From positions 320,038 to 384,037 of the forward strand of contig JBBTWE010000001.1 of the NCBI GenBank assembly GCA_038062955.1: DNA of 64,000 nt, in the 5' to 3' direction. The notes beneath the pieces are model-generated. The model did not search any database and had not been told where the DNA came from. It saw only the letters and a program-made list of their open reading frames with translations. Each line of letters opens with the position of its first letter. Position 1 is the first letter of the stretch. This document shows, piece after piece, positions 870 to 63,466 of the stretch. The position numbers were made by a program, and so were the translations under genes. Source of the stretch: Patescibacteria group bacterium. Lineage in GTDB: Bacteria; Patescibacteriota; Minisyncoccia; Phycocordibacterales; BOKC01.

Positions 870-1451
870 TTAAATCTTATATCTTCCCTCCACTTCCTTC
901 CAATCAATCGCGCTCCAAAATGCAGTTATGTAATCAGCGCGCTTTATTCCATAGTCGAGCATGAAAGCATGTTCGAAAACATCCATAACCAAAAGTGGTT
1001 TACAGCCTGCTAGATGGCCAACATCATGTTCGTTAACCCAGACATTAAACAATTCTTTATTAGTTGGATCTTCGTAAAGAATTACCCAGCCAATCCCCCG
1101 CATTGCTCCAACAGCTCGAAAATCTTTTTCCCAATTTTCGTAGGAGCCGTAGATTTTGGTTAATTTTTTAAAAAGTTCTGAAGTTTTAGGCAAAGCTTTC
1201 CCTTCCTTCGTCATATTGCCAAAATAAAGTTCGTGGAGACGCATGCCATTAAATTCCCAACCAAAACGACGCACTATTTCTGAATATTCTGGCGTTCCTC
1301 CCTTTCCATCTTTCGCTAGAGCTTCTAATGTAGTAATAATTTTATTCGTATTGGTTACATACCCGCCATAAAGTGTAAAATGGTTTTTTAATAATGCATC
1401 ACTAAAACCCGCTGTGCCCAAAAGATGATCGTAGTTTTGTGCTTCGTACAT
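870..1451 (-). CDS. sodA: Fe/Mn superoxide dismutase
   Basis: The DVFEHAFMLDY...FWSAIDW motif is the canonical Fe/Mn-SOD C-terminal metal-binding signature. Length is 193 aa. Confidence 0.9.
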   Translation of the reverse strand: MYEAQNYDHLLGTAGFSDALLKNHFTLYGGYVTNTNKIITTLEALAKDGKGGTPEYSEIVRRFGWEFNGMRLHELYFGNMTKEGKALPKTSELFKKLTKIYGSYENWEKDFRAVGAMRGIGWVILYEDPTNKELFNVWVNEHDVGHLAGCKPLLVMDVFEHAFMLDYGIKRADYITAFWSAIDWKEVEGRYKI

Positions 1452-1539
1452 ATTTTTTTAATAAGTTAATAAGTAGTAGATTCAAGAATCACCACGAAAC
1501 GCTCAATTTATAAATTCTTTTACTTTTTGAATGCAGTAC

Positions 1540-1625
1540 TAGGCGCGAGCGAGAACCATACCGAGCCGTATGTACTTATACGGTGAGGGAGGCTCGGAGC
1601 GAAGCAACGACGTAATGCGTCAAAA
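1540..1625. repeat. Intercistronic structured repeat, type A, copy 1 (ccgag-CCGTAT-gtactt-ATACGG-tgagggaggCTCGGagcgaagcaacg). It lies between the ahpC stop and the sod start.
   Basis: It shares about 80% identity with the copies at 11718..11800 and 20593..20682. Nested inverted repeats are visible. Confidence 0.7.
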
Positions 1626-1635
1626 ATAAAAGAAT

Positions 1636-2199
1636 TTAAATCTTTCCGACAAGATCTAGCCCCGGCTTCAATGTCTCTTCTCCCGGTTCCCAACCTGCTG
1701 GACAAACCAATCCATCATTTTCTCTGACAAACTTAGCAGCTTGGAGTTTTCTTAAAATTTCCTTGGCGCTTCTGCCGATTGAATTATCATGAAGCTCATA
1801 CGCTTTCAAAATTCCATCCGGGTCAATTATAAAACTTCCTCTTTGGGATTTTCCTTCTTCTTCAATAAATGTGCCAAAAAGCCTGCAAAGTTTCGCAGAT
1901 GGATCAGCAAGCATCGGATATTTTATTTTCTTTATAGCGGGTGACGCATCATGCCAAGCTTTGTGAACTTCAATTCTATCAGTGCTTACGCTCATAATTT
2001 CAGCTCCGATTTTTTTGAATTCAGCATATAAATCTGCGAGCTCTTCTAATTCTGTAGGACAAACAAATGTGAAATCAGCAGGATAAAAAGCTAAAACAAG
2101 CCATTTTCCTGGGTGCTTACTTATATTAAATTTCTTTTCTTTTCCATCATGAAATCCTTGAATCTCAAACGAGGGCACTTTTTCTCCAATTTTAATCAT
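1636..2199 (-). CDS. ahpC: 2-Cys peroxiredoxin (AhpC/TSA family)
   Basis: The FTFVCPTE peroxidatic-Cys motif is present. Length is 187 aa. Confidence 0.9.
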   Translation of the reverse strand: MIKIGEKVPSFEIQGFHDGKEKKFNISKHPGKWLVLAFYPADFTFVCPTELEELADLYAEFKKIGAEIMSVSTDRIEVHKAWHDASPAIKKIKYPMLADPSAKLCRLFGTFIEEEGKSQRGSFIIDPDGILKAYELHDNSIGRSAKEILRKLQAAKFVRENDGLVCPAGWEPGEETLKPGLDLVGKI

Positions 2200-5529: not shown

Positions 5530-5700
5530 GACAGTTAGTATTTAGTATATTAACACTAACAGAATTTTCAATTTACAATTACCAATTTTCAATGAATTAT
5601 CAATGTTTCAATTTTCAATTGATAATTGTCTCTCTTTATCTCGCGGAGCGAGAGAGTTTGGGGCTTGATTGATAATTGGTTATTGATAATTGATAATTTT
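5530..5700. repeat. Iteron-like short direct repeats (caattttcaat and attgataattg units, several copies each) plus a small hairpin (ctcgc-gga-gcgag) in the helicase intergenic/promoter region.
   Basis: Seen directly in the sequence. Confidence 0.4.
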
Positions 5701-7787: not shown

Positions 7788-7801
7788 ATTGTTAAAATTT
7801 A

Positions 7802-7830
7802 AGATATCAGATTTAAGATTTAAGATTTTT
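7802..7830. repeat. Tandem 9-10-bp ATTTAAGAT repeats in the greA/uvrD intergenic region
   Basis: The same unit recurs at 845..888, 16292..16390, 23164..23194, 24535..24572, 61061..61100 and 63436..63466. Confidence 0.6.
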
Positions 7831-7964: not shown

Positions 7965-8480
7965 CTACTTGATTTCTATTATCTTATATTTAACCGAACC
8001 TTGTGGAGTGTTGAAAGAAAAAATATCACCTTTCTTTTTTCTCAAAATGGCTTGCCCAAATGGAGATTTGTTTGAAACTTTATTTTTACTTATATCAGCT
8101 TCTTCGGAACCAACGATTGTGAAAGTTTGCGGACCATTCCCTTTTTCTTTTTCTACTGTAACCACAGAGCTTACCGCAACTTCTTCGCTGTTATGAGCTC
8201 CTGTTATTTTTGCTGATTTGAGAAGGATCTCAAGTCTTGCAATTCTATCTTCAACGTTAGCCTGATCTCCACGAGCTTCCTGATATTCAGCGTTTTCTGA
8301 TAAATCACCAAGGGAACGAGCGTATTCCAGATGCTCGGCAATTTCTTTCCTTTTAGTTTTTTTGAGATGCTCTAACTCTTTTGTTAATTCACTAAATTTT
8401 TCTTTGGTTAAGTATTCTGTCTCATTCATAAATATATAACTTCCATATTTGGCCAATTTTGTAGTAAAAACTTGTCTCAA
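7965..8480 (-). CDS. greA: Transcription elongation factor GreA
   Basis: The coiled-coil N-domain plus FKBP-like C-domain and the LSENAEY motif are present. Confidence 0.9.
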   Translation of the reverse strand: MRQVFTTKLAKYGSYIFMNETEYLTKEKFSELTKELEHLKKTKRKEIAEHLEYARSLGDLSENAEYQEARGDQANVEDRIARLEILLKSAKITGAHNSEEVAVSSVVTVEKEKGNGPQTFTIVGSEEADISKNKVSNKSPFGQAILRKKKGDIFSFNTPQGSVKYKIIEIK

Positions 8481-8586
8481 ATCTGAAAGTTCTAAATTTC
8501 TATAGTAAATATTATTATAGTAATAAATAAATTGATTTTGAAATATTATACACCAAAACGTTAAAAGTCAATTCTAAATTTTAGAT

Positions 8587-8626: not shown

Positions 8627-9306
8627 ACCGAGGAACCTCTCGAGGTGCTAGACTTGTACGATTGGGGTCAAGGGTTACCAATCGGCACTCATTCGAGGAC
8701 TCCTCTCACACAGAACAGGGAATAAAGGGTGTTCAACCCTTTGATCCGTCTTCGCTCGCGGATCATGAGAATGCCGTCCACAGGTGTCGACAATGATCCT
8801 GTCGACTCATTCTCGCGATGCCGCTCGCTAGCCGGAATAAAAGCCGAGTCCTCAATCCATTCTCATGTGCGCCAGAACTTCTTCCTGTGAAGTCGTTGCC
8901 TACCATTCCACAGGTTGAGGAGAGCAAACAGACGAGGACTCGGATGTTCTTATTGAATGAAAGTGGTCCTTCCGAAGGGAAGCGACTCCAAAATGGCGGT
9001 ACTGGGGATTTCCCCCGGAAGGACAGTGTTCGGTGCTGTGCTGTATGTGAGAGAAAAAGAGCGAATCTGGGGAGTATTATAGATATCAGAGACCAAAAGT
9101 CAATGATTATAGCTGCCTGCCGGCAGGTATAAAAAAGGGGCCCCCATCTGCCGGTCAGAACAGAAGGGGGCCCACGAAACTTGATCCCGAGACCATATTA
9201 TGGAAAGGGCGGTTAGGGAGGGGGGTACTGGTCTCCATCACACAGCCACGGGATCTTCACCAAGAGCAGTCTGTTGAGTATTGTATACCTTAAAAAATAA
9301 AAGTCA
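8595..9306 (-). ncRNA. GC-rich island 1. This is a roughly 700-nt highly structured region with no ORF of 60 aa or longer and no SD on the transcribed (minus) strand. It is a candidate large structured ncRNA or a decayed cassette.
   Basis: The GC content is far above the flanks. Many long-range perfect stems are present (GGTCCTTCCG/CGGAAGGAC, GGGCCCCC/GGGGGCCC, GATCCCGAGACCA/TGGTCT..CGGGATC). It is bounded by the mrdA terminator and by its own terminator. It does not match RNase P, tmRNA or SRP signatures. Confidence 0.35.
8721..8844 (+). repeat. Modular GC-rich repeat, copy A. It consists of module 1 (aaagggtgttcaaccctttgatccgtcttcgctcgcggatcatgagaat), module 2 (ccgtccacaggtgtcgacaatgatcctgtcgac) and module 3 (cattctcgcgatgccgctcgctagccggaataaa).
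   Basis: It matches the copies at 13643..13768 (outer modules inverted, inner module in the same orientation) and 15036..15122 (lacking module 2). Confidence 0.7.
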
Positions 9307-9383
9307 ACCCCGTAGTGAATTTTGGCATAGTTTTCAACGTGTTTAGACCGAAGTCTAAACAATGCCAAAATCTACTACGGGGT
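9307..9383 (+). repeat. Conserved hairpin element with a 22-bp stem, copy 1. The left arm is ACCCCGTAGTGAATTTTGGCAT, the loop is 33 nt and the right arm is ATGCCAAAATCTACTACGGGGT.
   Basis: The arm sequences are identical to the copies at 17739..17803 and 30420..30486. As plus-strand RNA, 21 of 22 positions pair (including one G-U). Confidence 0.8.
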
Positions 9384-11387: not shown

Positions 11388-11657
11388 TCAACGTTTTAGT
11401 AAAAATATTTTCTTTTTCAATATCTCTAGAACTACAAACAATACTATCGCGAAAACAGTTAAAATATAAGCACCAAATAAAACACTCTTTGGCGAATATA
11501 ACAGGTCAAGGAAAAAAGCGAGAAAAATAGATTCAAAATATAAATTAAAATAAAAAATTAATAGAAAAGCTACTGGTAATGTAATCCACCACGGAAGCAC
11601 AAATAGACAAATTAAGAGAAAAACATCAGCAATGATTCTTTTTAAAGTGAGGTTCAT
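11388..11657 (-). CDS. mreD: Rod shape-determining protein MreD
   Basis: An 89-aa polytopic membrane protein located between mreC and mrdA. Confidence 0.65.
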   Translation of the reverse strand: MNLTLKRIIADVFLLICLFVLPWWITLPVAFLLIFYFNLYFESIFLAFFLDLLYSPKSVLFGAYILTVFAIVLFVVLEILKKKIFLLKR

Positions 11658-11717
11658 GATTCAAGAAAAAATTTTAAAATACAGATTTCTAGAACTTTTA
11701 GATTTGGATACAGACCT

Positions 11718-11800
11718 AGGCGCAAGCGAGGAGCGAACCGAGACGTATTTGACAATACGTTGAGGGAGCACCGGAGCGAAGCAACGACGGTATGTGCCAA
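11718..11800. repeat. Intercistronic structured repeat, type A, copy 2 (ccgagACGTATttgacaATACGTtgagggag...cggagcgaagcaacg), located between mreC and mreD.
   Basis: Homologous to 1540..1625 and 20593..20682. Confidence 0.7.
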
Positions 11801-11814
11801 ATATATAAGTTCTT

Positions 11815-12639
11815 TTATTTTTCGATTGAGACCCAGCGTAACTCTGCTAGATTAACGGGTAACCTAACATAGATTTTCTTGAAAGAGGAAGCGGGACCAT
11901 GCTCAACTTCTTCGACTTTTCCCAATATTTTACTTCTCTCACCTGAAATCGTTATTTCATCTCCAATTTCCACTTTTACTTCTTGAGAAACTGAACCTAC
12001 TAAGTTCCCTCCTCCTCGCCCAATCATTTTAATCGGTAATTTTTGAGAACCTAAAAAAGCTTGGGTTTCAATTCCGCCCGAAGAGAATAATCTTATCTTG
12101 GAAGTTTGAGCTAACACCTGAACCACTTCGCCAAGCAAAATATTTTCGAAAAAAACTTTATTCTCTATTTCTATGTTGGCATTTCTACCGACATCTACTA
12201 TAAAAACGTCGTATGATGTGAGTGGTGGTCGAGCTAAAATAAAAGCCGGTATTGTTGATGTAGCTTCAGTTCTTTCTAAAATTGCCCGAAAAGTTTTATT
12301 TTCTTCCTCCAAAAGATCGAGATCAAATGATTTTGCTCTGCGATGAAGCAGTTCTTCTCTTAACTCAATATTCGTTTTTACTAAACTTTCTCTTGAGTTG
12401 ATCAGAGCTGTAAGGATAGAAAATTTATTCTCAATATAAATTTTTGATTTCCAAAAAGGATAAGCTACTCCACCCGCAATATCCGCAAAAACATTTCGCA
12501 GTGGCTTGGACAAAATTGAGAGAATAAAAATAAATAGGATAATACAAAGAGAGAGCAAAACGATTTTTTTGTAATTTCTTTTATTTTTGCGGCGGTAATT
12601 CATCGTCATTTGCAATGAGAACTTCTTTGTAATACTCAA
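11815..12639 (-). CDS. mreC: Rod shape-determining protein MreC. The real start is probably an internal Met, which would reduce the overlap with mreB.
   Basis: N-terminal TM segment, coiled coil and beta-rich C-domain are present, in the expected position in the operon. Length is 274 aa. Confidence 0.8.
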   Translation of the reverse strand: MSITKKFSLQMTMNYRRKNKRNYKKIVLLSLCIILFIFILSILSKPLRNVFADIAGGVAYPFWKSKIYIENKFSILTALINSRESLVKTNIELREELLHRRAKSFDLDLLEEENKTFRAILERTEATSTIPAFILARPPLTSYDVFIVDVGRNANIEIENKVFFENILLGEVVQVLAQTSKIRLFSSGGIETQAFLGSQKLPIKMIGRGGGNLVGSVSQEVKVEIGDEITISGERSKILGKVEEVEHGPASSFKKIYVRLPVNLAELRWVSIEK

Positions 12640-13642: not shown

Positions 13643-13768
13643 TTTTTATTCCGGCTAGCGAGCGACATCGCGAGAATGTACCGTCTACAGGTGTCGACAA
13701 TGACCCTGTCGACCTCATTCTCATGATGCGCGAACGAAGACGGATCAAAGGGGTTTAATACCCTTTAT
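13643..13768 (-). repeat. Modular GC-rich repeat, copy B. It forms the proS-mreB intercistronic leader and abuts the mreB ATG.
   Basis: It is the reverse complement of copy A in its outer modules (tttattccggctagcgagcg..., ...gacggatcaaaggggtttaataccctttatt), with the GTCGAC module retained in the plus orientation. Confidence 0.7.
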
Positions 13769-16291: not shown

Positions 16292-16390
16292 AAAAGATAT
16301 ACGATTTCAGATTTAAGATATTAGATTTACAAAATTGAGATTTTTAATTTTTTTGAAATCATAAATCATATATCGTAAATCTTAAATTAT
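16292..16390. repeat. Tandem ATTTAAGAT-type repeats upstream of rseP and downstream of frr
   Basis: gatttcagatttaagatattagatttac...aaatcatatatcgtaaatcttaaatta. Confidence 0.55.
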
Positions 16391-17732: not shown

Positions 17733-17738
17733 ACCCCG

Positions 17739-17803
17739 TAGTGAATTTTGGCATTGTTACTTTTGCAATGGAGTTGTTATGCCAAAATCTACTACGGGGT
17801 TAT
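17739..17803 (+). repeat. Conserved 22-bp-stem hairpin element, copy 2. It sits directly after the island-2 terminator and overlaps the atpC stop codon.
   Basis: The arms are identical to copies 1 and 3. The loop, tgttacttttgcaatggagttgtt, is related to the copy-3 loop (TTGCAA core). Confidence 0.8.
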
Positions 17804-18033: not shown

Positions 18034-18052
18034 TTAAGTAAAGCTGAGATTT

Positions 18053-18175
18053 TAGAACTTCCAGATTTGAGACAAGTTGTTTGATAAAACTGAGTACCGA
18101 AGCGAGACGTATGTACTTATACGGCGAAGCAAGGAACGGAAGTTTTAGCAAAGAAATTGGCCAAATGTGGAAGTT
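18053..18175. repeat. MITE-like 125-bp element, type B, copy 1, with terminal inverted repeats (TIRs, tagaacttcca / tggaagtt) and an internal CGTATgtacttATACG hairpin. It lies between atpD and atpC.
   Basis: About 90% identical to 26716..26843. Confidence 0.75.
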
Positions 18176-18179
18176 ATAA

Positions 18180-19592
<1,413 letters not shown>

Positions 19593-20540
19593 TTATTTTG
19601 AAAGCGCTTCAGTACCTGCCGTAATCTCTATGAGTTCTTTAGTAATTTGAGCTTGGCGGGTTTTATTGTATGTAATTCGAAGCCGATTGGCTATGTCGAT
19701 CGCGTTTTGCGAGGCATTCTTCATCGCAATCATTCTCGAAGAGTGCTCGGAAGCGTTGGCTTCAAGAATTGCTGTGTGAACCTCGATATCAATCAAAAAT
19801 GGCAACAAATCATGCAAAACTTCATTCACATTAGGTTCGAGGAGATATTTAGATCCAGATTTTTTATCTTCTTCAAATGAGTTTCTGATATGAGAATATT
19901 TTCCTTCGCGTGGGATTATGTTTGAGATTACGTCCCGAATGGCTTCAAGCGTGAAAGGAATTAATTTTCGAATTATTACGTCCTGCTTCAAAGCTGAAAT
20001 AAAATTGGTATAAATAATTAAGACTTCCTGATAGACACCTTTGTTGTAAAGTTCATAAATTAAATTTGAAATCGGAAGAGTTTCTTCCGCCTCTGTAAAA
20101 TCTCCAGCTTTCAAAAATTCGGCGATTAAAGTCGCCTTCGCTCTACCGAGCTTCGTCGGACCGAAGTAATCTTTACCTTTTTTTCCAACCGCAATAACAT
20201 CCACTGGGGCTTTCGCTTCATCAATAAATTTCTGTGCTTTTCGAAGAACATTAGTGTTAAAAGCTCCGGCAAGTCCTTTGTCAGAAGTTACCACAATGAG
20301 ACAGATTTTCTTTATTTCTCTTTGATTTAAAAATGGATTCTCGTGGAGCTCTCCAAGATCAATTTTTGAAAGAGTATTTTGCAGAATATCCAAAGCGGCG
20401 AAAGAGAACGGCCGAGATCGCAAAGCTACAAGCTCGCTTTTTCTCATTTTGACAGCCGAAACCGCTTCCATCGCCTTGGTAATCTGGCCGATGTTTTTAG
20501 TCGAACGAATGCGGTTTTTTAGTTGTCGTGAGCTGGCCAT
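19593..20540 (-). CDS. atpG: ATP synthase F1 gamma subunit
   Basis: The N-terminus RIRSTKNIGQITKAMEAVSAVKMRK matches the gamma-subunit signature. Confidence 0.9.
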   Translation of the reverse strand: MASSRQLKNRIRSTKNIGQITKAMEAVSAVKMRKSELVALRSRPFSFAALDILQNTLSKIDLGELHENPFLNQREIKKICLIVVTSDKGLAGAFNTNVLRKAQKFIDEAKAPVDVIAVGKKGKDYFGPTKLGRAKATLIAEFLKAGDFTEAEETLPISNLIYELYNKGVYQEVLIIYTNFISALKQDVIIRKLIPFTLEAIRDVISNIIPREGKYSHIRNSFEEDKKSGSKYLLEPNVNEVLHDLLPFLIDIEVHTAILEANASEHSSRMIAMKNASQNAIDIANRLRITYNKTRQAQITKELIEITAGTEALSK

Positions 20541-20592
20541 AATATTTGTAAACTTTGGGACTTAATAGAATTTAATTAATTTGGATGCAATT

Positions 20593-20682
20593 CGAGGCGC
20601 GAGTGAGAACCGTACCGAGACGTATTTAATAATACGTTGAGGGAGGCTCGGAGCGAAGCAACAAAGAAGTGCGCCGAATTAA
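20593..20682. repeat. Intercistronic structured repeat, type A, copy 3, between atpA and atpG.
   Basis: ggcgcgagtgagaaccgtaCCGAGacgtatttaataatacgttgagggaggCTCGGagcgaagcaac. Confidence 0.7.
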
Positions 20683-20688
20683 CAAATT

Positions 20689-22212
20689 CTATTTAAAATA
20701 TTTCTTGAAATCTGAAATAATCGTTTTAATCTTTTCATCAATCTTCGCTGTAATCTCGGCAGTCTCTCGAAGTTCTTTCAAGACCTCTGCATGTCTTTCA
20801 TTCATAAATTCTAAGAGTTTCTTTTCAAACAAAGAGACTGACGCAAGAGGCACGTCATCAATATAACCATTTACTCCGGCATATAGAGAAATAACCTGCT
20901 TTTCAAATGGCATACTCTCATATTGTGGCTGTTTCAATAATTCAACCAATCGTTGTCCACGATTAATCTTTTTTTGAGTTGCTTGATCGAGTTCCTGACC
21001 AAACTGCGCAAAAGCCGCAAGTTCTCTAAATTGGGCGAGTTCAAGCCTCAAAGTACCCGCAACTTTTTTCATAGCTTTTGTCTGGGCCGATGAACCGACA
21101 CGCGACACTGAAAGTCCGACGTTGATAGCTGGTCTTATTCCCTGATAGAAAAGTTCGGGTTCAAGATAAATTTGCCCGTCAGTAATGGAAATAACGTTTG
21201 TTGGCACATAAGCTGAAATATCTCCGAGTTGAGTTTCAATAATTGGGAGCGCAGTAAGAGATCCTCCTCCAAATTCTTTACTTAATCTCGCCGCTCTTTC
21301 AAGAAGTCTTGAGTGAAGATAGAAAATATCTCCAGGATAAGCTTCGCGGCCAGGAGGGCGTCGCAGAAGAAGAGAAACTTGTCTGTATGCCCAAGCGTGC
21401 TTCGAAAGATCATCGTAAATTACGAGAGCGTCCTTTCCTTTATCCATAAAATATTCACCGATAGCACATCCAGCATAAGGAGCTAAATATTGGAGGGACG
21501 CAGGAGAAGCGGCGCCAGCAACAACCACGACCGTGTAATCCATTGCTCCAGACTTTTTTAATTGTTCGACAATGTGAGCAACTTTTGATTCTTTTTGACC
21601 AATCGCAACATAAATACAGATCGGAGTGCCATTTCGAACATCATTTTTCTGATTGATGATTGTATCGATAACGATTGCGGTTTTTCCGGTCTGACGATCA
21701 CCAATAATAAGCTCACGCTGACCTCGGCCGATTGGAATCACCGCGTCAATTGCCTTAATACCAGTTTGAAGTGGCACTTTTACCGATTCTCTGGTTATAA
21801 CTCCTGGAGCAACTTTTTCGAGTGGATAGTGCTCAACTTTATTTTTATCAAATGCTTTTCCTCCATCAATTGGTTCGCCAAGTGGATTGATTACTCTACC
21901 CAAAAGTTCCGAGCCAACGGGAATCGAAAGAATGCGGCCGGTTCCCTTTACTCTCTGTCCTTCAATAACTTTGGTTGAATCTCCGAGAATAATCGCGCCG
22001 ATCGTGTCTTCTTCAAGGTTCAATGCAAGCCCGGTTACTTTTTCGCTTTCTTTTTCGTTTTCAAATTCCAAAATTTCAGAAGACTTTACTCCAGATAATC
22101 CTCGGATGATTGCGACCCCATCCCCCACGCGTAAAACTTCGCCGACATTGCTAACAGACGGACTGCCTTTAATGCCAGAAATTTCTTTTTTTAATTGTTG
22201 TAAAATATCCAT
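20689..22212 (-). CDS. atpA: ATP synthase F1 alpha subunit
   Basis: Walker A (GDRQTGKT) is present. Length is 507 aa. Confidence 0.95.
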
Positions 22213-23141: not shown

Positions 23142-23221
23142 TGAGATTAGAAATTAAAAACGTTGATTCATGATTCAAGATTCACGATTCAAGACAAGAA
23201 TGGCAAAAAAGATTTTCATTC

Positions 23222-23300
23222 AATTTTAGATGAAGTGCTAGGCACCGCCGAGGCTTGCCAACCAAAATGTATGTACTTATACATTGCGGGAGGCCTCGAT
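23222..23300. repeat. Variant of the type-A structured element (CCGAGGC-...-ATGTATgtacttATACAT-...-GCCTCGA), between atpE and atpF.
   Basis: It has the same nested-stem architecture and the same GTACTT loop as 1540..1625 and 18053..18175. Confidence 0.55.
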
Positions 23301-23402
23301 GAATCTAAGGCACTGCGATTTGTAACCAATCGCCTTGCTCTTGGACAAATCGGGAGCAAACGTAGGCGGTAACGACGCAATTCGCTAAAATTGGATGAAA
23401 AG

Positions 23403-24524: not shown

Positions 24525-24602
24525 AGAGTTAAAGGATTTATGATTTAAGATTTATGATTTAAGATTTCTAATTCATGAACCTTGAATTTACTTCTTAAAC
24601 TT

Positions 24603-25908: not shown

Positions 25909-26008
25909 CCCCCACAAGGTCTCGCAGACAAGTTCTGATCGAGGCCTTTCTTTTTTACTTTCAACACTATAACTTCCTGTCTGTCGGCAGGCAGGTACAC
26001 TTTTAACT

Positions 26009-26701
26009 TTATACTCGTGGTATAACCATCGCTACATTTTCGAGAATTATTTTTACCGATGCGGAGCGATTGTTGAGATAATTTCTGCTTTTAGAAATAA
26101 TTTCAAAAGCGTTTACTTGTTCGTCACTGATTTCTTTCAATTTAACTTTTTTTCTTAAGGCTACTTCTAGGTGATTTAAAAATTTCTTTGCTTCTCCCTT
26201 GTCTTTATCTTCTATAATTTGCGCCAAAAGTCGAATCCTTGCCGGAATACTCAAACTCAAAAAATAGTCCATTTCAAATGGCGCCGCAACACTTTTTTCC
26301 CGCTTCGGACGATCGGCCATCCTTTTAATGGGCATGAACCGCGACATGAGAGTCGGCAATAAATTTTCTGAAGAAGGTAAAATAAAAAAGAAAAAAGAAT
26401 TTGGTTGCGGTTCTTCCAGAATTTTTAAAAGAGCGTTTTGGGCCTCGTTTGTAATAAATTTTGTTCGCACCACAAAAACTTTGCGGCCGCTTTCTCCCAA
26501 AGCTTTACTTAAATGTCGATTTTTTAATTCCCTACTCTCATCAATACCAAAAGTGTCCGTGTCTTTCTGCCAATAATCCAGATTACTGTTTATATCAAAA
26601 TCGAGATTAGTTTTTAAAAAATCAGTCAAAATCAAAAGAGCGTTTTCATCTTCTGAAATATACAAAAACGCATGATGCTTTTTGATTAAATCTTTCTCCA
26701 T
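26009..26701 (-). CDS. holB: DNA polymerase III delta-prime subunit-like (clamp-loader AAA+ fold without a Walker A motif)
   Basis: AQNALLKILEEP and LLPTLMSR (sensor) are typical of delta-prime/gamma. Confidence 0.7.
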   Translation of the reverse strand: MEKDLIKKHHAFLYISEDENALLILTDFLKTNLDFDINSNLDYWQKDTDTFGIDESRELKNRHLSKALGESGRKVFVVRTKFITNEAQNALLKILEEPQPNSFFFFILPSSENLLPTLMSRFMPIKRMADRPKREKSVAAPFEMDYFLSLSIPARIRLLAQIIEDKDKGEAKKFLNHLEVALRKKVKLKEISDEQVNAFEIISKSRNYLNNRSASVKIILENVAMVIPRV

Positions 26702-26715
26702 AAAAATTCAATACT

Positions 26716-26843
26716 GGTAGAACTTTCAGATTTGAGACAAGTTGTTTGATAAAACTGAGCACTGTAGCGAGACGTATTTAATAATACGGCGAGTGAAGAG
26801 CGGAAGTTTTAGCAAAGAAATTGGCCAAATATGGAAGTTCTAC
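26716..26843. repeat. MITE-like 125-bp element, type B, copy 2, between holB and mreB-2. Its right TIR overlaps the mreB-2 stop codon.
   Basis: ggtagaactttcagatttgagacaagttgtttgataaaactgag...gaagttttagcaaagaaattggccaaatatggaagttctac. Confidence 0.75.
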
Positions 26844-27892
26844 TTCTTGGCCATGATGGATTTCTTATAAACATCCAGATGTTCAAGCGCAATTCCCGTC
26901 CCCCTAGCCACACAATAAATTGGATTATCGGCCAAAACAGCTTTCACCCCCGTCCTTCTATAAATAAGTTCTGGTAAATTTCGGAGTTGTGAAGTTCCTC
27001 CCGTCATGATAATTCCACGGTCAATAATATCAGAAGCTAATTCTGGAGGCGTGTCTTGAAAAACATCTTTTATTGCTTTAACAATTTCCTTAAGTTCATG
27101 GTGAATCGCTTTGACTATCTCATTAGTTTTAACATCAAGCGATCTTGGAAGACCGGTTATAAAATCTCGTCCTTTAATTGTAAGAGTTAGTTCCTCATCA
27201 AGCGGAATTGCTGAACCAATCTTGATTTTTATATCTTCAGCTGTTTTATCCCCTATCGCCAAGTTAAAATTTTTCTTCACATAATCCGCAATCGAAACAT
27301 CAATTTTATTTCCAGCACATTTCACCGAAGTCGCCGCCACAATTCCTCCAAGAGAAATTACCGCGACGTCAGTCGTACCTCCGCCGATATCCACAATCAT
27401 GTGTCCAACCGATTCATAAATAGGAATTCCCGCGCCAATCGCAGCCAATATTGGTTCTTTAACAATATAAGCATTTTTAGCTCCTGCCTTGAGAGACGCT
27501 TCAATCACCGCCCTTCTTTCGGTCGAAGTTACTCCAGCTGGCACTGAAACTAAAACTTCGGGCTTCACAATATTCCATTTACCGAGTGCTTTTTTTATAT
27601 AATACCGAAGCATTGCTTCTGTCACTCGATAATCCGCAATCACACCGTCCCGCATCGGTCGATAAGCAATAACATTTTCCGGAGTTTTACCTATCATTTT
27701 TTTGGCTTCGAGACCAATTGCCAAAATTTTATTATCTTCTTCAGACACTGCTACAACCGAAGGTTCGTTTAAGACAACGCCTTTGCCAGGTACATATACG
27801 AGAACACTGGTCGTACCTAGATCGATTCCTAATTTTTTGGAGAAAATACCCATAGATAAAGGTATAATATGCTTTTTTTTGAATTTAAACAA
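26840..27892 (-). CDS. Second MreB-family actin homolog (Mbl/MreBH-like paralog)
   Basis: LGIDLGTTSVLVYV and DIGGGTTDVAV are present. It is about 45-50% identical to the mreB at 12581..13642 by eye. Confidence 0.85.
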   Translation of the reverse strand: MFKFKKKHIIPLSMGIFSKKLGIDLGTTSVLVYVPGKGVVLNEPSVVAVSEEDNKILAIGLEAKKMIGKTPENVIAYRPMRDGVIADYRVTEAMLRYYIKKALGKWNIVKPEVLVSVPAGVTSTERRAVIEASLKAGAKNAYIVKEPILAAIGAGIPIYESVGHMIVDIGGGTTDVAVISLGGIVAATSVKCAGNKIDVSIADYVKKNFNLAIGDKTAEDIKIKIGSAIPLDEELTLTIKGRDFITGLPRSLDVKTNEIVKAIHHELKEIVKAIKDVFQDTPPELASDIIDRGIIMTGGTSQLRNLPELIYRRTGVKAVLADNPIYCVARGTGIALEHLDVYKKSIMAKK

Positions 27893-30420: not shown

Positions 30421-30486
30421 ACCCCGTAGTGAATTTTGGCATCGTTGCCTTGCAACAGAGTTGCTATGCCAAAATCTACTACGGGG
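30420..30486 (+). repeat. Conserved 22-bp-stem hairpin element, copy 3, followed by T8.
   Basis: accccgtagtgaattttggcat-cgttgccttgcaacagagttgct-atgccaaaatctactacggggt. Confidence 0.8.
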
Positions 30487-34781: not shown

Positions 34782-35303
34782 CTAAACAAAGTTTCCTTGT
34801 TTGCTTAGAGTACGAAACACTATCCCCGTCCAGATTGAAATTAATCCAAACAATAAGATTAACCCCGAGAAAACGTAAGTTAAAATTCCTAAATTAAGAG
34901 CGGTATTTAATGTTGTAGCGGTTATCCAAATATCACGAGCGGTGTTTGAAACCATAACAGGCTTACCTTCTGCGTCCAAAACCGGCAAACCATTTTCAAG
35001 TTTTGGAATTTGTCTTGGCATTTCAGAAAATGTTTTTCCGCCCGTTGATTCGAGAGTATGTTTTCTAATTATATCTACCTGTGCTTTGAGTGTGAACGGT
35101 CCCCTGACCTCTACTTTTGAAATAGTAGCGTCTTCTGGTGTCACAATTTTTTCCTGCGCTATATTTTGATAAGTAAAACAAATACCCCATATTCCACCTG
35201 CTACCAAAATAACTCCTGCAATGATTGCTAATAAAGATGAGACTTTTAGTAATTTTTTCATCCCGTAGTGAAATTTCAGGTCGTCCCGTAGTGAAAACTT
35301 CAC
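34782..35303 (-). CDS. Hypothetical membrane protein with two TM segments. The likely start is MKKLLKV at 35261.
   Basis: N- and C-terminal TM helices flank an extracytoplasmic domain. Confidence 0.55.
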   Translation of the reverse strand: MKFSLRDDLKFHYGMKKLLKVSSLLAIIAGVILVAGGIWGICFTYQNIAQEKIVTPEDATISKVEVRGPFTLKAQVDIIRKHTLESTGGKTFSEMPRQIPKLENGLPVLDAEGKPVMVSNTARDIWITATTLNTALNLGILTYVFSGLILLFGLISIWTGIVFRTLSKQGNFV

Positions 35304-35317: not shown

Positions 35318-35484
35318 TACCCTTAAAGTGTTATTTGTCTTAATAATTAACTCAATTTTATTACCGCATTCCAGTACGAAGAATTCATAACCTGAAATTC
35401 CCTGTCTGCCGACAGGCAGGTACTACAGGATTCATGCCCACATTATATACCGTCTATGAATTTTACTACCCACAATTATCCACA

Positions 35485-45655: not shown

Positions 45656-45980
45656 AGCAGTATAGGTTTCCCATTTTTTCGGATTTAACATCCTCAAAAA
45701 TATGGGAGAACCTTTTCGAATCCTACCTCGCAAGCAAAATTATTTGCTTGCTCGCGAGTAGGAATTTCTTTCATTACATGAACAGTATACCTTTTGGCTA
45801 AAATTTTCATCCTCGACAAACTTGGATTCAATTTTAGGCTCAAAAGCTTTTCGAATCCTAACGAAGGTGCTATTCAAAGCACCTTCTCCCGCAGAAGCCA
45901 CAAATGACAAAATCCACCGAAAAGGTGGATTTGTGTCAGTGGCTCCGCGGGTAGGATTCGAACCTACGACCAATCGCTTA

Positions 45981-46535
45981 CATTTGTTCCAAAGTTGCCT
46001 TTGGCATGGACTATATCATCATCCTTCATCGGCTGTTTGCAGATGGATGGGATGTGAGGCGCTTCGACTGAATTTTTCAGGCTACTCTCTTTCGAGATAG
46101 TCTCTGAACCTTCCTGCTGATTAGCAGGCTTGGCTGCTGATTGCCCACGTGGGGTTTCCAGCAATTCACCTCATTTTTCATCCTAAATTCCTTTAGGAAG
46201 CTGCGTGATGCCGTCATGTATTTCCATGTGACAATTTGCACAAACGAGTACGCACTTCTTAATTTCCTCTTCGATTTTGGCCCAGGAACGTGTTATGCCT
46301 CCAGAAGCAAGATCGAATTTCTTTGTAGATGGATCGATATGGTGGAAACTAAGAGATCGTTGGCATTTTTTGTAACCACATATAAAACATTTACTGCCTT
46401 TCGTTGCTCTAGCCATTTCACGAAGTTTTCTTCTTCTTCGTTTTACAGCTTCTCGCATGTACTCGGCACGGTCGGCATAGGTTCTTTTTTCTTTCCTGGT
46501 ATACATTAATAAAGTATACCACAGAACCTTCTGAC
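45981..46535 (-). mobile_element. Group I intron (within the anticodon loop of the tRNA) carrying an HNH homing-endonuclease ORF.
   Basis: P7 strands GACUA / UAGUC (cagAGACTAtc ... atATAGTCc), GNRA-capped hairpins (tctcGAAAgaga, ccaaagGCAActttgg), a terminal omega-G and the HNH ORF are all present. Confidence 0.7.
46183..46506 (-). CDS. HNH homing endonuclease (intron-encoded)
   Basis: CFICGYKKC...SFHHIDP...N...CANCHMEIH is the C-x2-C/HH/N/C-x2-C-H HNH signature. Confidence 0.8.
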   Translation of the reverse strand: MYTRKEKRTYADRAEYMREAVKRRRRKLREMARATKGSKCFICGYKKCQRSLSFHHIDPSTKKFDLASGGITRSWAKIEEEIKKCVLVCANCHMEIHDGITQLPKGI

Positions 46536-49127: not shown

Positions 49128-49218
49128 GGTCACTTTCTTTTTTCTCAAGATGTCAATACTACTTTGAGAAACTTCTTTTGAAAAAATGGGAAATCTATAC
49201 TGTTCTCGTAGAGAGAAA

Positions 49219-49262
49219 CTCCCTGCCTGCCGGCAGGCAGGCTACCCGCGGAGTCTACAAAC
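49219..49262. repeat. A 45-bp element, the right member of the inverted pair with 45611..45655.
   Basis: agagaaactccctgcctgccggcaggcaggctacccgcggag. Confidence 0.65.
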
Positions 49263-60976: not shown

Positions 60977-61261
60977 GTTTGTTTAGCTGTATTTTACAAC
61001 TTTTGGCGTAAAAAGTCATAATTCAAGCCAACAAAGTTAGAAATTTGATCTAAATTAAAAAATCTTAAATCTTAAATCCTATATCTTAAATCTCATTTGG
61101 GGGTTGACTTTTATGTGGATATAGATTAAGCTTGTAGCACAAAAGTTAATCGTCTCAAGTAAAGTCGATTTAGAGCATTATATTTTTGTACTTATTAGGT
61201 TAAGCACAGGTTTTCCAAAAATCGCATTATATGCGACCAAGGAAGGCCTAAAAGCAATTTC

Positions 61262-61576: not shown

Positions 61577-62473
61577 ATGCCTCAAATCAATTTCAAAGAT
61601 AGTCGCTTCGTGTCATGGACACTAGGAATAGCTCTTGTGCTTTTTATTTTTGGATTTATTTTTACACTGGTGAGTTTCACGAAATTTAAAAACAGCACCA
61701 AAATTGCAATTGAAGGATACGAAAGTAAAATAAAAGGACTCGAAGCAACACTTACAGAAACTACTATCGAGAAAACAGCTTTGGCCGAGCAATTAGATGC
61801 CGAACAAAGAAAGAACGCGGATTTCGAAGAACAAATAAGCGAAATCGAAGGAACTATTGGAGACCTTGAAAAGTTAAGCAAAACAGACCCAGAACTTTTG
61901 AATAAATATTCCAAAGTATATTTTTTAAATGAAAATTATATTCCGAGTGGCATAGTTCAAATACCTTCCGCTTACACCCAGAATGACAGCAAAGATTATT
62001 GGCTTCATAAGCAAATCTGGCCGTTTCTAGAGAAAATGATAAAGGCGGCAAAGGCAGACAGAATTGATCTCGAGATTATTTCCGGATACCGCTCTTTCGA
62101 TGAACAAGTGGAAGTAAAATCTGGCCATGTTGTCGTCTATGGCGCCGGCACTGCAAATCAATTCTCCGCAGAACAGGGATATTCAGAACACCAACTCGGC
62201 ACAACGGTTGATTTGACTACCAAAGAACTCGGGATAAACTACGAACAAATTGAAACTACAAAGGCCTACGAGTGGTTACAGAAGAACGCTTACAAGTACG
62301 GATTCATTCTCTCCTATCCAGAGGGCAACACTTACTACCAATTCGAGCCATGGCACTGGCGCTTCGTTGGAATTAAATTGGCTAAAGATTTAAACGATGA
62401 TGGAAAGTATTTCTACGATTTGAGTCAGAGAGAGATTGATGCATACCTCATAAACTTCTTCGACAAACGATAG
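61577..62473 (+). CDS. Membrane-anchored D-Ala-D-Ala carboxypeptidase (VanY / peptidase M15B family)
   Basis: SGYRSFDEQ, HQLGTTVDL and EPWHWRF are the zinc-ligand motifs of M15B. Confidence 0.8.
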   Translation: MPQINFKDSRFVSWTLGIALVLFIFGFIFTLVSFTKFKNSTKIAIEGYESKIKGLEATLTETTIEKTALAEQLDAEQRKNADFEEQISEIEGTIGDLEKLSKTDPELLNKYSKVYFLNENYIPSGIVQIPSAYTQNDSKDYWLHKQIWPFLEKMIKAAKADRIDLEIISGYRSFDEQVEVKSGHVVVYGAGTANQFSAEQGYSEHQLGTTVDLTTKELGINYEQIETTKAYEWLQKNAYKYGFILSYPEGNTYYQFEPWHWRFVGIKLAKDLNDDGKYFYDLSQREIDAYLINFFDKR

Positions 62474-62658
62474 TCGCCGAGAAATTTTGGAGAATTTCTT
62501 TGTTGTAACAATTTTTTTCTCCTGCACAGTATTAGTTATACAGCTTAGTACGAAAAAAATCGTTACGCCTCGAACTTCTCTCAAAATATCTCAGCTTGTA
62601 AATTCTCGAGAAAATTTTGTGTAAAAAGAAAGGGCGACCATGGCTGTTGCCTTGGTCG

Positions 62659-63255
62659 CCCGTCTACAGGTGTCGACGCCTAACCCGTCGACCCCTCGTT
62701 GTTTGTTCTCACTGATTCGTGAATCACTCTCGTGAGTCTGATGGAGATCTCCAATCCCAATCACCCGGACCGAAATGAAAATCCCACTTCTGTTCCTTCT
62801 GATTCCACCGCAGTTTTGGTAGCCGCTTACCATTCACCATCGTTGATACTTGTCCTGGGAACGCGATTGTTCCTGGTATGGACAGATCAGGCTGTTCCTC
62901 CATCAGTTTGAGCATTTCTGCAGACCCAGCCGAACGACAACGCCACAACTTCATCAGCAACCTGTACCGCCTCATCGTCATGGGGACAGGAAGGCAGAAA
63001 CAGAGGAGCGCGCCGAGCTTCGTGGGACGATAGGCCTTCTGCCGCAACACCTTGCCGAGGAGATACGCCTTGAGCACCCAAAGCACATCGAGGACGAATC
63101 CGCGCACGGCACTGACACGATCACCGAACGAAAGGTTCTTGTTCTTCACGGTCTGTTCTCCTATCGAGGTTGAATTTCTGTTTTTGTGACTTAGCGAAAT
63201 TGCTTTGCCACAGCAGGAGACGGGTCGACGGGTTGGGCGTCGACACCTGTAGACG
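62659..63255. mobile_element. MITE/IS-like GC-rich element of about 600 bp, bounded by 35-bp near-perfect terminal inverted repeats (ccgtctacaggtgtcgacgcc[t/c]aacccgtcgaccc). It contains one GTG-start ORF.
   Basis: The TIRs are at 62659..62693 and 63221..63255 (34 of 35 positions match). The same GTCGAC-N9-GTCGAC motif occurs in the modular repeat copies A and B. Hairpins flank each TIR. Confidence 0.6.
62724..63149 (-). CDS. Hypothetical protein inside the TIR-bounded element (GTG start with a taggaga SD)
   Basis: ORF track plus the SD. The protein is Arg/Trp-rich. Coding status is uncertain. Confidence 0.3.
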   Translation of the reverse strand: MKNKNLSFGDRVSAVRGFVLDVLWVLKAYLLGKVLRQKAYRPTKLGALLCFCLPVPMTMRRYRLLMKLWRCRSAGSAEMLKLMEEQPDLSIPGTIAFPGQVSTMVNGKRLPKLRWNQKEQKWDFHFGPGDWDWRSPSDSRE

Positions 63256-63466
63256 GCCCTCCTCCTGCTGTGGCAAAAACGTTGTAAATCAGTGAGTTTT
63301 TAATGAACAATTTTCTGTGTCCAGTATACACCCATTCGTGTATTTTGTCAAGCACAAATTGTATATAACAAATAGACGGCTAGGAACAAGGGTGTTTTAA
63401 TACATAGGCCGAGCCTATGTATGATGATTTTATTCTTGAATCGTGAATCATAAATCTTGAATCTGA

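Follow-up and report, generated by a model that had tools for sequence, protein, structure and literature searches.

The window, the 64,000-nt stretch of a Patescibacteria genome analysed here, contains housekeeping genes whose intergenic gaps are occupied by hairpin repeats of one family. Pfam assignments around these repeats are AhpC followed by Sod, MreC, AtpA followed by AtpG and then AtpD, and the AtpB and AtpF subunits; the open reading frames flanking the type A repeats all lie on the minus strand. A covariance model (R1, built from the alignment A2 described below) finds eight family members in the window, the atpE/atpF variant as a local match:

1513..1637, plus strand: type A hairpin repeat, copy 1 (R1, 134 bits)
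8435..8494 (model match 8427-8499), minus strand: 60-nt "mini" (27 bits, with 71 model positions deleted; fold z -4.8)
11690..11814, plus strand: type A hairpin repeat, copy 2 (146 bits; fold z -4.5)
18053..18178 (model match 18048-18186), plus strand: type B hairpin repeat in the gap between atpD (beta) and atpC (epsilon) (64 bits, E 7e-13)
20567..20691, plus strand: type A hairpin repeat, copy 3 (135 bits)
23213..23401, plus strand: branched 189-nt member in the atpE/atpF gap (recognised by fold and sequence comparison; local model match only, 16.7 bits)
26718..26842 (model match 26713-26850), plus strand: type B hairpin repeat (72 bits)
about 62470..62598 (model match 62465-62603), minus strand: diverged member (48 bits, E 4.5e-9; several pairs broken)

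An earlier reading of this DNA, made from the sequence alone (the sequence-only reading), had counted four members, three copies at 1540, 11718 and 20593 and a variant at 23222, which falls short of the eight found by the model. The four themselves are real: the three copies are present and homologous by sequence and by the repeat finder, which recovers them as the 121-nt three-copy family D1, and the variant is a true relative, judged by comparison of its outer stem and by its fold. The sequence GGAGCGAAGCAAC occurs exactly three times in the window, and overall identity among the copies within the window is only 72-74%. Copy 1 is flanked by ahpC (1636-2199, minus strand) and sod (870-1451, minus strand), both assigned by Pfam, and its final bases overlap the ahpC stop codon. 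Copy 2 is directly adjoined by mreC (11815-12639, minus strand), and copy 3 has atpA (20689-22212, minus strand) on one side and atpG (19593-20540, minus strand) on the other, with its terminal CTA being the TAG stop codon of atpA. The flanking genes had thus been named correctly for AhpC/Sod, MreC and AtpA/AtpG, with the exception of "mreD" (open reading frame 11388-11657), which has no Pfam match. On the plus strand, the three type A copies fold alike, each into an interrupted hairpin longer than 100 nt (-31 to -33 kcal/mol, z -3.2 to -4.5), compared with z -0.9 to -2.4 on the minus strand; for copy 1 the values are -33 kcal/mol and z -3.2 on the plus strand and z -0.9 on the minus strand.

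The type B repeats have the outer stem and the apical hairpin of type A and a different middle section (repeat families D8/D20). The two copies are 91-93% identical, and the one at 26718 lies between mreB (26840-27892, minus strand) and the gene for DNA polymerase III delta' (26009-26701, minus strand), both assigned by Pfam. The "mini" consists of the type B outer stem alone, 6-8 nt before the presumed start codon of greA, and the diverged member is situated immediately 3' of a VanY gene (61577-62473, plus strand; Pfam). The branched member folds with -77 kcal/mol and z -8.4; its GA loops are replaced by Watson-Crick pairs, it carries an additional side hairpin, and comparison with the rows of a second alignment (A4, see below) shows that its outer stem is that of the copies L016:1203 and L013:11231, which supports homology. 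In line with the sequence-only reading, the apical hairpin GTATGTACTTATAC is common to copy 1, the type B repeat at 18048 and the atpE/atpF variant, and three members lie inside the atp operon, at atpE/atpF, atpA/atpG and atpD/atpC.

It should be noted that elements in the window come after genes whose products are required in more copies than the product of the next gene (c before b, alpha before gamma, beta before epsilon, and MreB before pol III delta'); the gap between ahpC and sod is likewise element-bearing, although both products are abundant. This placement after high-stoichiometry genes may be due to chance or to an adopted role in differential expression. A further observation concerns the 3' arm of the outer stem, which places a GGAAG box 10-15 nt before the presumed ATG of greA (8426-8450 in the window; 2745-2765 in the related locus L049). 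The box has been retained in the "mini" of the window despite the deletion of the element interior, and in several other loci an ATG is found 5-13 nt past the 3' end of the element.

The window contains additional repeats and one additional structured RNA. A second, unrelated hairpin repeat family, ACCCCGTAGTGAATTTTGGCAT...ATGCCAAAATCTACTACGGGGT, is present at 9307-9383, 17733-17799 and 30421-30486, with a partial copy at 35254-35290; it has a GTAG motif, a variable apex and a single-stranded DNA fold with z -6 to -9.5. Two small palindromic repeat families are CCGTCYACAGGTGTCGAC... (8774-8806, 13681-13713, 62660-62692) and CCTGYCTGYCGRCAGGCAGG (25971-25998, 35396-35423, 49217-49244). Many intergenic gaps hold tandem arrays of heptamers of the ATCTTAA, GATTCAA and GATTTAT types with four to eight units (846-885, 5563-5620, 5668-5698, 7792-7828, 16356-16387, 23164-23194, 24535-24578, 61060-61093 and 63434-63464), several of them just upstream of start codons on the minus strand, for example those of atpB and atpF. 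A group I intron (RF00028, 78 bits, 45988-46271) is located inside a tRNA gene (45930-46510, minus strand): directly 3' of the intron is the 3' half of a tRNA, with T-arm and acceptor, ending in CCA (GGTCGTAGGTTCGAATCCTACCCGCGGAGCCA), and 5' of the ribozyme core an HNH-like motif (CANCHMEIH) is encoded. ARAGORN detected no tRNA anywhere in the 64-kb window.

The repeat unit is a quasi-palindrome of 125-190 nt, one specific strand of which folds as a long rod. The unit of about 85 nt originally proposed is only the core, the true unit in the window being about 125 nt long, and the sequences gcgagcgag and cggagcgaagcaacg, which had been taken for flanks, are both paired parts of the hairpin, beyond which a further AT-rich outer stem of 17-25 bp follows. 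This outer stem has the ends TAGRACTT...AAGTYCTA. The middle of the rod is built from 2-bp G-C steps that are split by purine-rich internal loops, mostly opposed GA dinucleotides, with GA on one arm opposite GA, GGA or GAA on the other, and the tip is a 7-8-bp apical hairpin, sometimes replaced by a larger branched apex. In C-GA-G contexts, GA/AG oppositions are stable as sheared pairs, in RNA as well as in DNA. The rod also contains an invariant GCGAAGC, the sequence of a very stable DNA mini-hairpin. The GA loops carry bulges of 0-1 nt rather than the 3-nt bulge of a k-turn, and k-turns were therefore rejected as a candidate.

The alignment A2 comprises 25 non-redundant copies, for which RNAalifold predicted a consensus fold of 39 pairs, and in 26 of these both sides have changed with the pair being kept. 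Standard pairs make up 94.8% of the paired cells, compared with 33-43% when the partners are slid by one to three columns. The covariation score is 0.451 versus 0.183 in shuffled alignments, and none of 500 shuffles reached any of the observed measures. Because the patterns used for scanning genomes and metagenomes fix 19-30 core positions, the invariance of those core columns in A2 arises partly by construction. Real variation is seen in the alignment A4, which consists of matches derived from the covariance model and not chosen by a scan pattern. In some of its subfamilies Watson-Crick pairs stand in place of the opposed GA loops, as in L038:871 (GACCGC/GCGGUC) and L016:1203 (ACCGGC/GCCGGU). 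Furthermore, a 221-nt variant with a multi-branched apex exists at L026:238-458 (z -7.9). The variety of subfamilies and the branched variants indicate that the rod is what is conserved, and not any single loop motif. Folding and covariation analysis had been proposed in the sequence-only reading as a check; the existence of a fold is strongly supported, but the pairing is not the nested CCGAG/CTCGG stem that had been suggested. Column 89 (U/C) covaries 13:12 with column 49 (A/G), and not with the invariant A of CCGAG.

The copies combine outer stem, middle module and apex in different ways. The outer stem of copy 1 recurs in L028, L037 and at L049:7600, in different gene contexts and together with other inner modules, and in the copy of L004 the 5' arm has been swapped for another palindrome. 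Conservation ends sharply at the ends of the hairpin, and no conserved promoter or terminator flanks the unit.

The fold is strand-specific. Among the pairs of A2, G-U cells number 74 and A-C cells 8, and 85% of the internal-loop residues are purines. In all 25 copies the plus strand folds better than the complement, whether RNA or DNA parameters are used; the mean energies of plus strand versus complement are -48 versus -37 kcal/mol for RNA and -23 versus -18 kcal/mol for DNA. Since the genes flanking the type A copies of the window are all encoded on the minus strand and the well-folding, purine-rich strand is the plus strand, these copies are antisense to their operons. In fact, throughout the window the structured strand runs antisense to the neighbouring genes, so that the mRNA carries the weaker, pyrimidine-rich complement. 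In other genomes this is not a rule. Among 48 copies, those of the window included, 17 were antisense to both neighbours, nine sense to both and eight mixed, the rest being unassigned, so that no clear preference relative to transcription is seen. In co-directional gaps outside the window the ratio is 11 antisense versus nine sense, and both orientations are found even inside one co-directional gene array (L013). Orientation relative to the local GC skew (28 versus 20) reveals no replication-strand bias. The claim that copies always lie between co-directional genes also fails in other genomes, in which convergent and divergent gaps are occupied. The earlier observation was thus real, but it under-measured the elements and took the wrong strand, and neither their full length nor the strand asymmetry nor the connection with CPR had been noticed.

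The elements occupy their intergenic gaps almost completely, and the terminal TAG (CTA on the other strand) is often the stop codon of the gene running into the element, for example atpA. A promoter and terminator scan of positions 1-20 kb of the window yielded no site that recurs at the elements or at their 5' ends, and listed no terminator at element positions. No U-tract follows either strand. An all-against-all BLAST of 257 open reading frames taken from the loci did not reveal a recurrent neighbouring protein and retrieved orthologous housekeeping genes only. L009 and L011 have common neighbours, but the element is at different positions.

Members of the family occur in CPR genomes, that of the window included, and in groundwater metagenomes. 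A scan of one genome per species with the core pattern gave 11 loci, six of which are true homologues, all from CPR: Parcubacteria GW2011_GWA1_40_21 (two copies), Paceibacterota, Vogelbacteria and two MAGs labelled Saccharibacteria. The remaining five, all from GC-rich genomes, match by chance. A stricter pattern applied to metagenomes added 28 loci, mostly from groundwater, and R1 produced 53 matches in 263 kb of other loci, with up to five in 7.9 kb (L016). No copies were found in viral contigs by pattern and covariance model; the single pattern match in a viral contig was not matched by the model and is regarded as chance. At Rfam 15 gathering thresholds no match was obtained at any element, in the window or in five loci, at E<=10 there were only chance matches to miRNAs and sRNAs (E>0.6), and Rfam searches over four stretches returned nothing beyond tRNAs and the group I intron. 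Full-text literature searches on CPR repeats, MITEs and structured RNAs retrieved no description of such repeats. The family therefore appears to be undescribed, but it belongs to a well-known kind of bacterial repeat.

Relatives of the window, obtained via homologues of AtpG and Sod, allowed a comparison of orthologous junctions:

atpA/atpG: element in the window and in L046 (AtpG 91.5% identical); 52-nt gap without element in L045 (89%); overlapping genes in L047 (53%)
ahpC/sod: element in the window; unrelated 146-nt palindrome in L049 (Sod 92%); 65-nt gap in L053 (83%)
PIF1/PK: 8-nt gap in the window; element with the outer stem of window copy 1 in L049
PBP/greA: 60-nt "mini" in the window; full 138-nt type B unit in L049 (2627-2764); rve_3 IS in L053
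mreC: element in the window (copy 2), retained in L049 (297-435) with five to six compensated pairs

Copies have been gained, lost, truncated or replaced at the same junctions among close relatives. This turnover, with junctions that lack a copy in close relatives, is the outcome that the sequence-only reading had named as speaking against a fixed, junction-specific role. The replacing sequences are the unrelated palindrome at positions 9855-10000 of L049 and an IS3-like (rve_3) insertion at positions 1131-2137 of L053, and the element-bearing gaps look like shared insertion hot spots. The comparison yielded no clean pair of an empty and a filled site and no target-site duplication beyond an ambiguous TA; as the gaps of L045 and L053 hold other short sequences, insertion boundaries and any duplication are unreadable there.

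Where a copy has been retained, it evolves slowly. Between the window and L046, the element differs by 7-9% and fourfold degenerate sites by 34.5%; between the window and L049, the values are about 18% for the element and 42-62% for fourfold degenerate sites. The non-element intergenic flanks are near saturation in these comparisons. Retained orthologous copies thus diverge three to four times more slowly than synonymous sites, locus-specific outer stems included. As these locus-specific stems are equally conserved, gene conversion from paralogues is not the whole explanation. The slow divergence indicates constraint at the level of the host, which is not predicted for a purely selfish element.

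The repeats probably represent a family of non-autonomous interspersed hairpin repeats of the Patescibacteria (CPR), the single-stranded form of which is under selection. The unit would have spread, and would be maintained, via a folded single-stranded form of the structured strand, either single-stranded DNA, by analogy with systems of the REPIN/RAYT or IS200/IS605 type, or possibly RNA. This would account for the compensatory changes that keep pairs intact, for G-U (G-T) wobbles and purine-purine mismatches being tolerated on just one strand, and for the mixed orientation relative to genes. In these compact genomes, copies would insert into the short spaces between genes, in many cases directly against a start or stop codon, and gain, truncation, replacement and loss would proceed on the timescale of strains. 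A resident copy would be co-transcribed with its neighbours and might, speculatively, affect them, either as a hairpin barrier in the polycistronic mRNA or through the Shine-Dalgarno-like GGAAG box of its outer stem; such effects could amount to a host function and may account for retained copies evolving more slowly than synonymous sites. The identity of only 72-74% among the window copies indicates that there has been no recent burst. A putative mobilising enzyme of the Y1/HUH type was sought by tblastn with approximate IS200 and IS608 TnpA queries in about 470 kb of partial genomes, which is a weak test, and none was found below E 0.2. The larger branched variants count against the mobile-repeat interpretation, since they resemble structured RNA more than the end of a transposon. 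It is conceivable, if rather doubtful, that the rod lined with purine-purine (mostly GA) oppositions is a functional single-stranded structure, RNA or single-stranded DNA, that is bound by a CPR-specific protein. If the rod were recognised by a protein, this would imply either a new type of mobile element, spreading by way of a folded single strand and a putative enzyme, or a regulatory RNA that is common in these bacteria and benefits the host; the latter would explain why tiny, streamlined genomes harbour copies that evolve three to four times more slowly than synonymous sites.

The sequence-only reading had offered two interpretations, RNA elements acting in operons and REP-like selfish hairpins, and the latter fits best in view of the high copy number, the intergenic location, the occurrence of both orientations, and gain and loss between close relatives, with an operon RNA element being possible only as a secondary effect. 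An intercistronic signal for stability, processing or attenuation that sets differential expression within operons, like REP in malEFG, would agree with the location of window copies in operon gaps directly after genes for abundant or high-stoichiometry products (c, alpha, beta, MreB, AhpC), abutting stop codons, with the conservation of retained orthologous copies beyond the synonymous rate, and with the substantial hairpin that the complement strand still forms (-24 to -37 kcal/mol). However, in every window copy the strand selected for structure is the one opposite to the mRNA, outside the window 11 antisense copies face nine sense copies and convergent and divergent gaps are also occupied, the same junctions are empty in the close relatives L045 and L053 and in the more distant L047, no U-tract follows either strand, and no terminator is listed at the elements within 1-20 kb. 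Because the mRNA of the window carries the weaker complement and other genomes show both orientations, a dedicated role in mRNA processing is not the primary explanation, and it is judged unlikely. The main rival is a set of stand-alone genes for structured non-coding RNAs. These genes would have signals of their own for transcribing the purine-rich strand, whose GA-lined rod would serve as a CPR-specific scaffold for protein binding. The strong, strand-specific covariation, the conserved purine-rich loops, the branched variants with very low z values (-7.9 and -8.4), the conservation of the core over several CPR lineages and the constraint on resident copies would all be expected of such genes, but a conserved flanking promoter or terminator is lacking and no promoter-like site recurs at the 5' ends of elements within 1-20 kb. 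In addition, selection for a trans-acting RNA would presumably not hold each of dozens of redundant copies per genome, copies are truncated and differ in presence between relatives, and the replacement of GA loops by Watson-Crick pairs in some subfamilies shows that the supposed binding motifs are dispensable. Non-coding RNA genes are thus a somewhat improbable explanation.

MITEs mobilised by a DDE transposase, for example derivatives of IS630/Tc1, with TAGRACTT/AAGTYCTA as terminal inverted repeats of double-stranded DNA and a TA target duplication, would be typical in size and intergenic location, and most copies indeed have the conserved inverted ends TAGRACTT...AAGTYCTA and TA on both sides. 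Yet TA is itself palindromic, and its variants behave as an inverted and not as a direct repeat (CA...TG in L013, TGAGA...TCTCA in L011). Recognition of double-stranded DNA does not predict pairing over the full length, compensatory changes, or a strand asymmetry in purines and in G-U versus A-C, and no autonomous partner IS with these ends was seen among the loci examined, so that this origin is very unlikely. Still less credible, to the point of being negligible, is a derivation from group II intron domain V or from integron attC sites. The attC sites are single-strand-specific hairpins of 57-141 nt between co-directional genes, but the ends of the repeats lack RYYYAAC/GTTRRRY boxes, their neighbours are core housekeeping genes (atp, mre, ahpC) and not cassettes, and orientation differs within a single gene array (L013). 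Domain V is a hairpin of 34 nt that has a 2-nt bulge and whose AGC triad is conserved. Copy 1 starts with GAGCCGUAUG, like the 5' side of this domain, but there is no match to Intron_gpII (RF00029) even at E<=10, the position of the AGC triad is variable and reads GAGCC, GAGAC, GAGGC, GAACC or GAAAC among the copies, and the 3' strand does not match and continues with UGAGGGAG; its rejection in the sequence-only reading is upheld. TIGR arrays and box C/D RNAs were also considered and rejected, as the CPR units stand alone at scattered sites, keep their loops while the stems vary, and contain no RUGAUGA/CUGA boxes. In the CPR-associated TIGR arrays, box C/D motifs and variable spacers are arranged in tandem beside a gene with a Tas/Nop domain (PMC12045711).

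The genomes of CPR/Patescibacteria are about 1 Mb in size, streamlined and thought to be repeat-poor. With a density that reaches one copy per 2-8 kb, an occurrence in several CPR lineages and a fold that is kept by compensatory change, the hairpin repeat is therefore a notable component of these streamlined genomes. It is of practical importance for annotation, because the elements overlap stop codons and produce spurious open reading frames, for assembly and binning, because they are repeats common to different genomes, and for strain typing, because presence and absence differ between close relatives. The model R1 could seed an Rfam-style family, and a mobilising enzyme or binding protein, if one exists, would provide a new handle on organisms that have not yet been grown alone. 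Should the repeats be no more than selfish hairpins, they would be nothing out of the ordinary in kind. The significance of the family rests on its density in streamlined genomes, on the unusual purine-lined, strand-specific rod, and on the unexplained constraint on resident copies.

Several known systems share features with the CPR repeats. Like integron attC sites, they are hairpins of the recombination type, in which structure is conserved over sequence and one strand folds productively, but they have no R/L boxes, cassette context or integrase, and their orientation is mixed. The modular build is reminiscent of the pneumococcal BOX elements, in that outer stems, middle modules and apices are reshuffled between copies and some copies are deletion derivatives; however, BOX modules are linear (A-B-C), whereas the CPR modules are nested levels of one hairpin. 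REPINs are long extragenic hairpins with frequent compensatory changes, which have been attributed to a folded single-strand intermediate (PMC3116915). The REPIN/RAYT systems of Pseudomonas and E. coli resemble the CPR family in being many-copy extragenic hairpins of about 100 nt with compensatory changes and a variable tip, in having no classical target duplication, and in that selection appears to act on the folded single strand. The CPR repeats differ in that they have no sequence similarity to REPINs, no conserved GTAG/CTAC tetranucleotide in the alignments and no arms recognisable as REP palindromes, no RAYT gene was seen in the partial genomes searched, and the rod is lined with purine-purine oppositions and strongly strand-asymmetric. 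The ERIC/IRU elements of Enterobacteria and the Correia/NEMIS elements of Neisseria are imperfect palindromes of 127-155 bp, which are located in transcribed intergenic regions in either orientation, have TA-flanked ends, and give rise to long hairpins in RNA, through which the stability of adjacent mRNA can change. The CPR repeats are likewise intergenic, TA-flanked imperfect palindromes in either orientation that form a long hairpin, but they reside in an unrelated phylum, share no sequence similarity, and have outer stems that covary instead of constant terminal inverted repeats. In kind, REPINs and the ERIC and Correia elements are the closest analogues of the CPR family.
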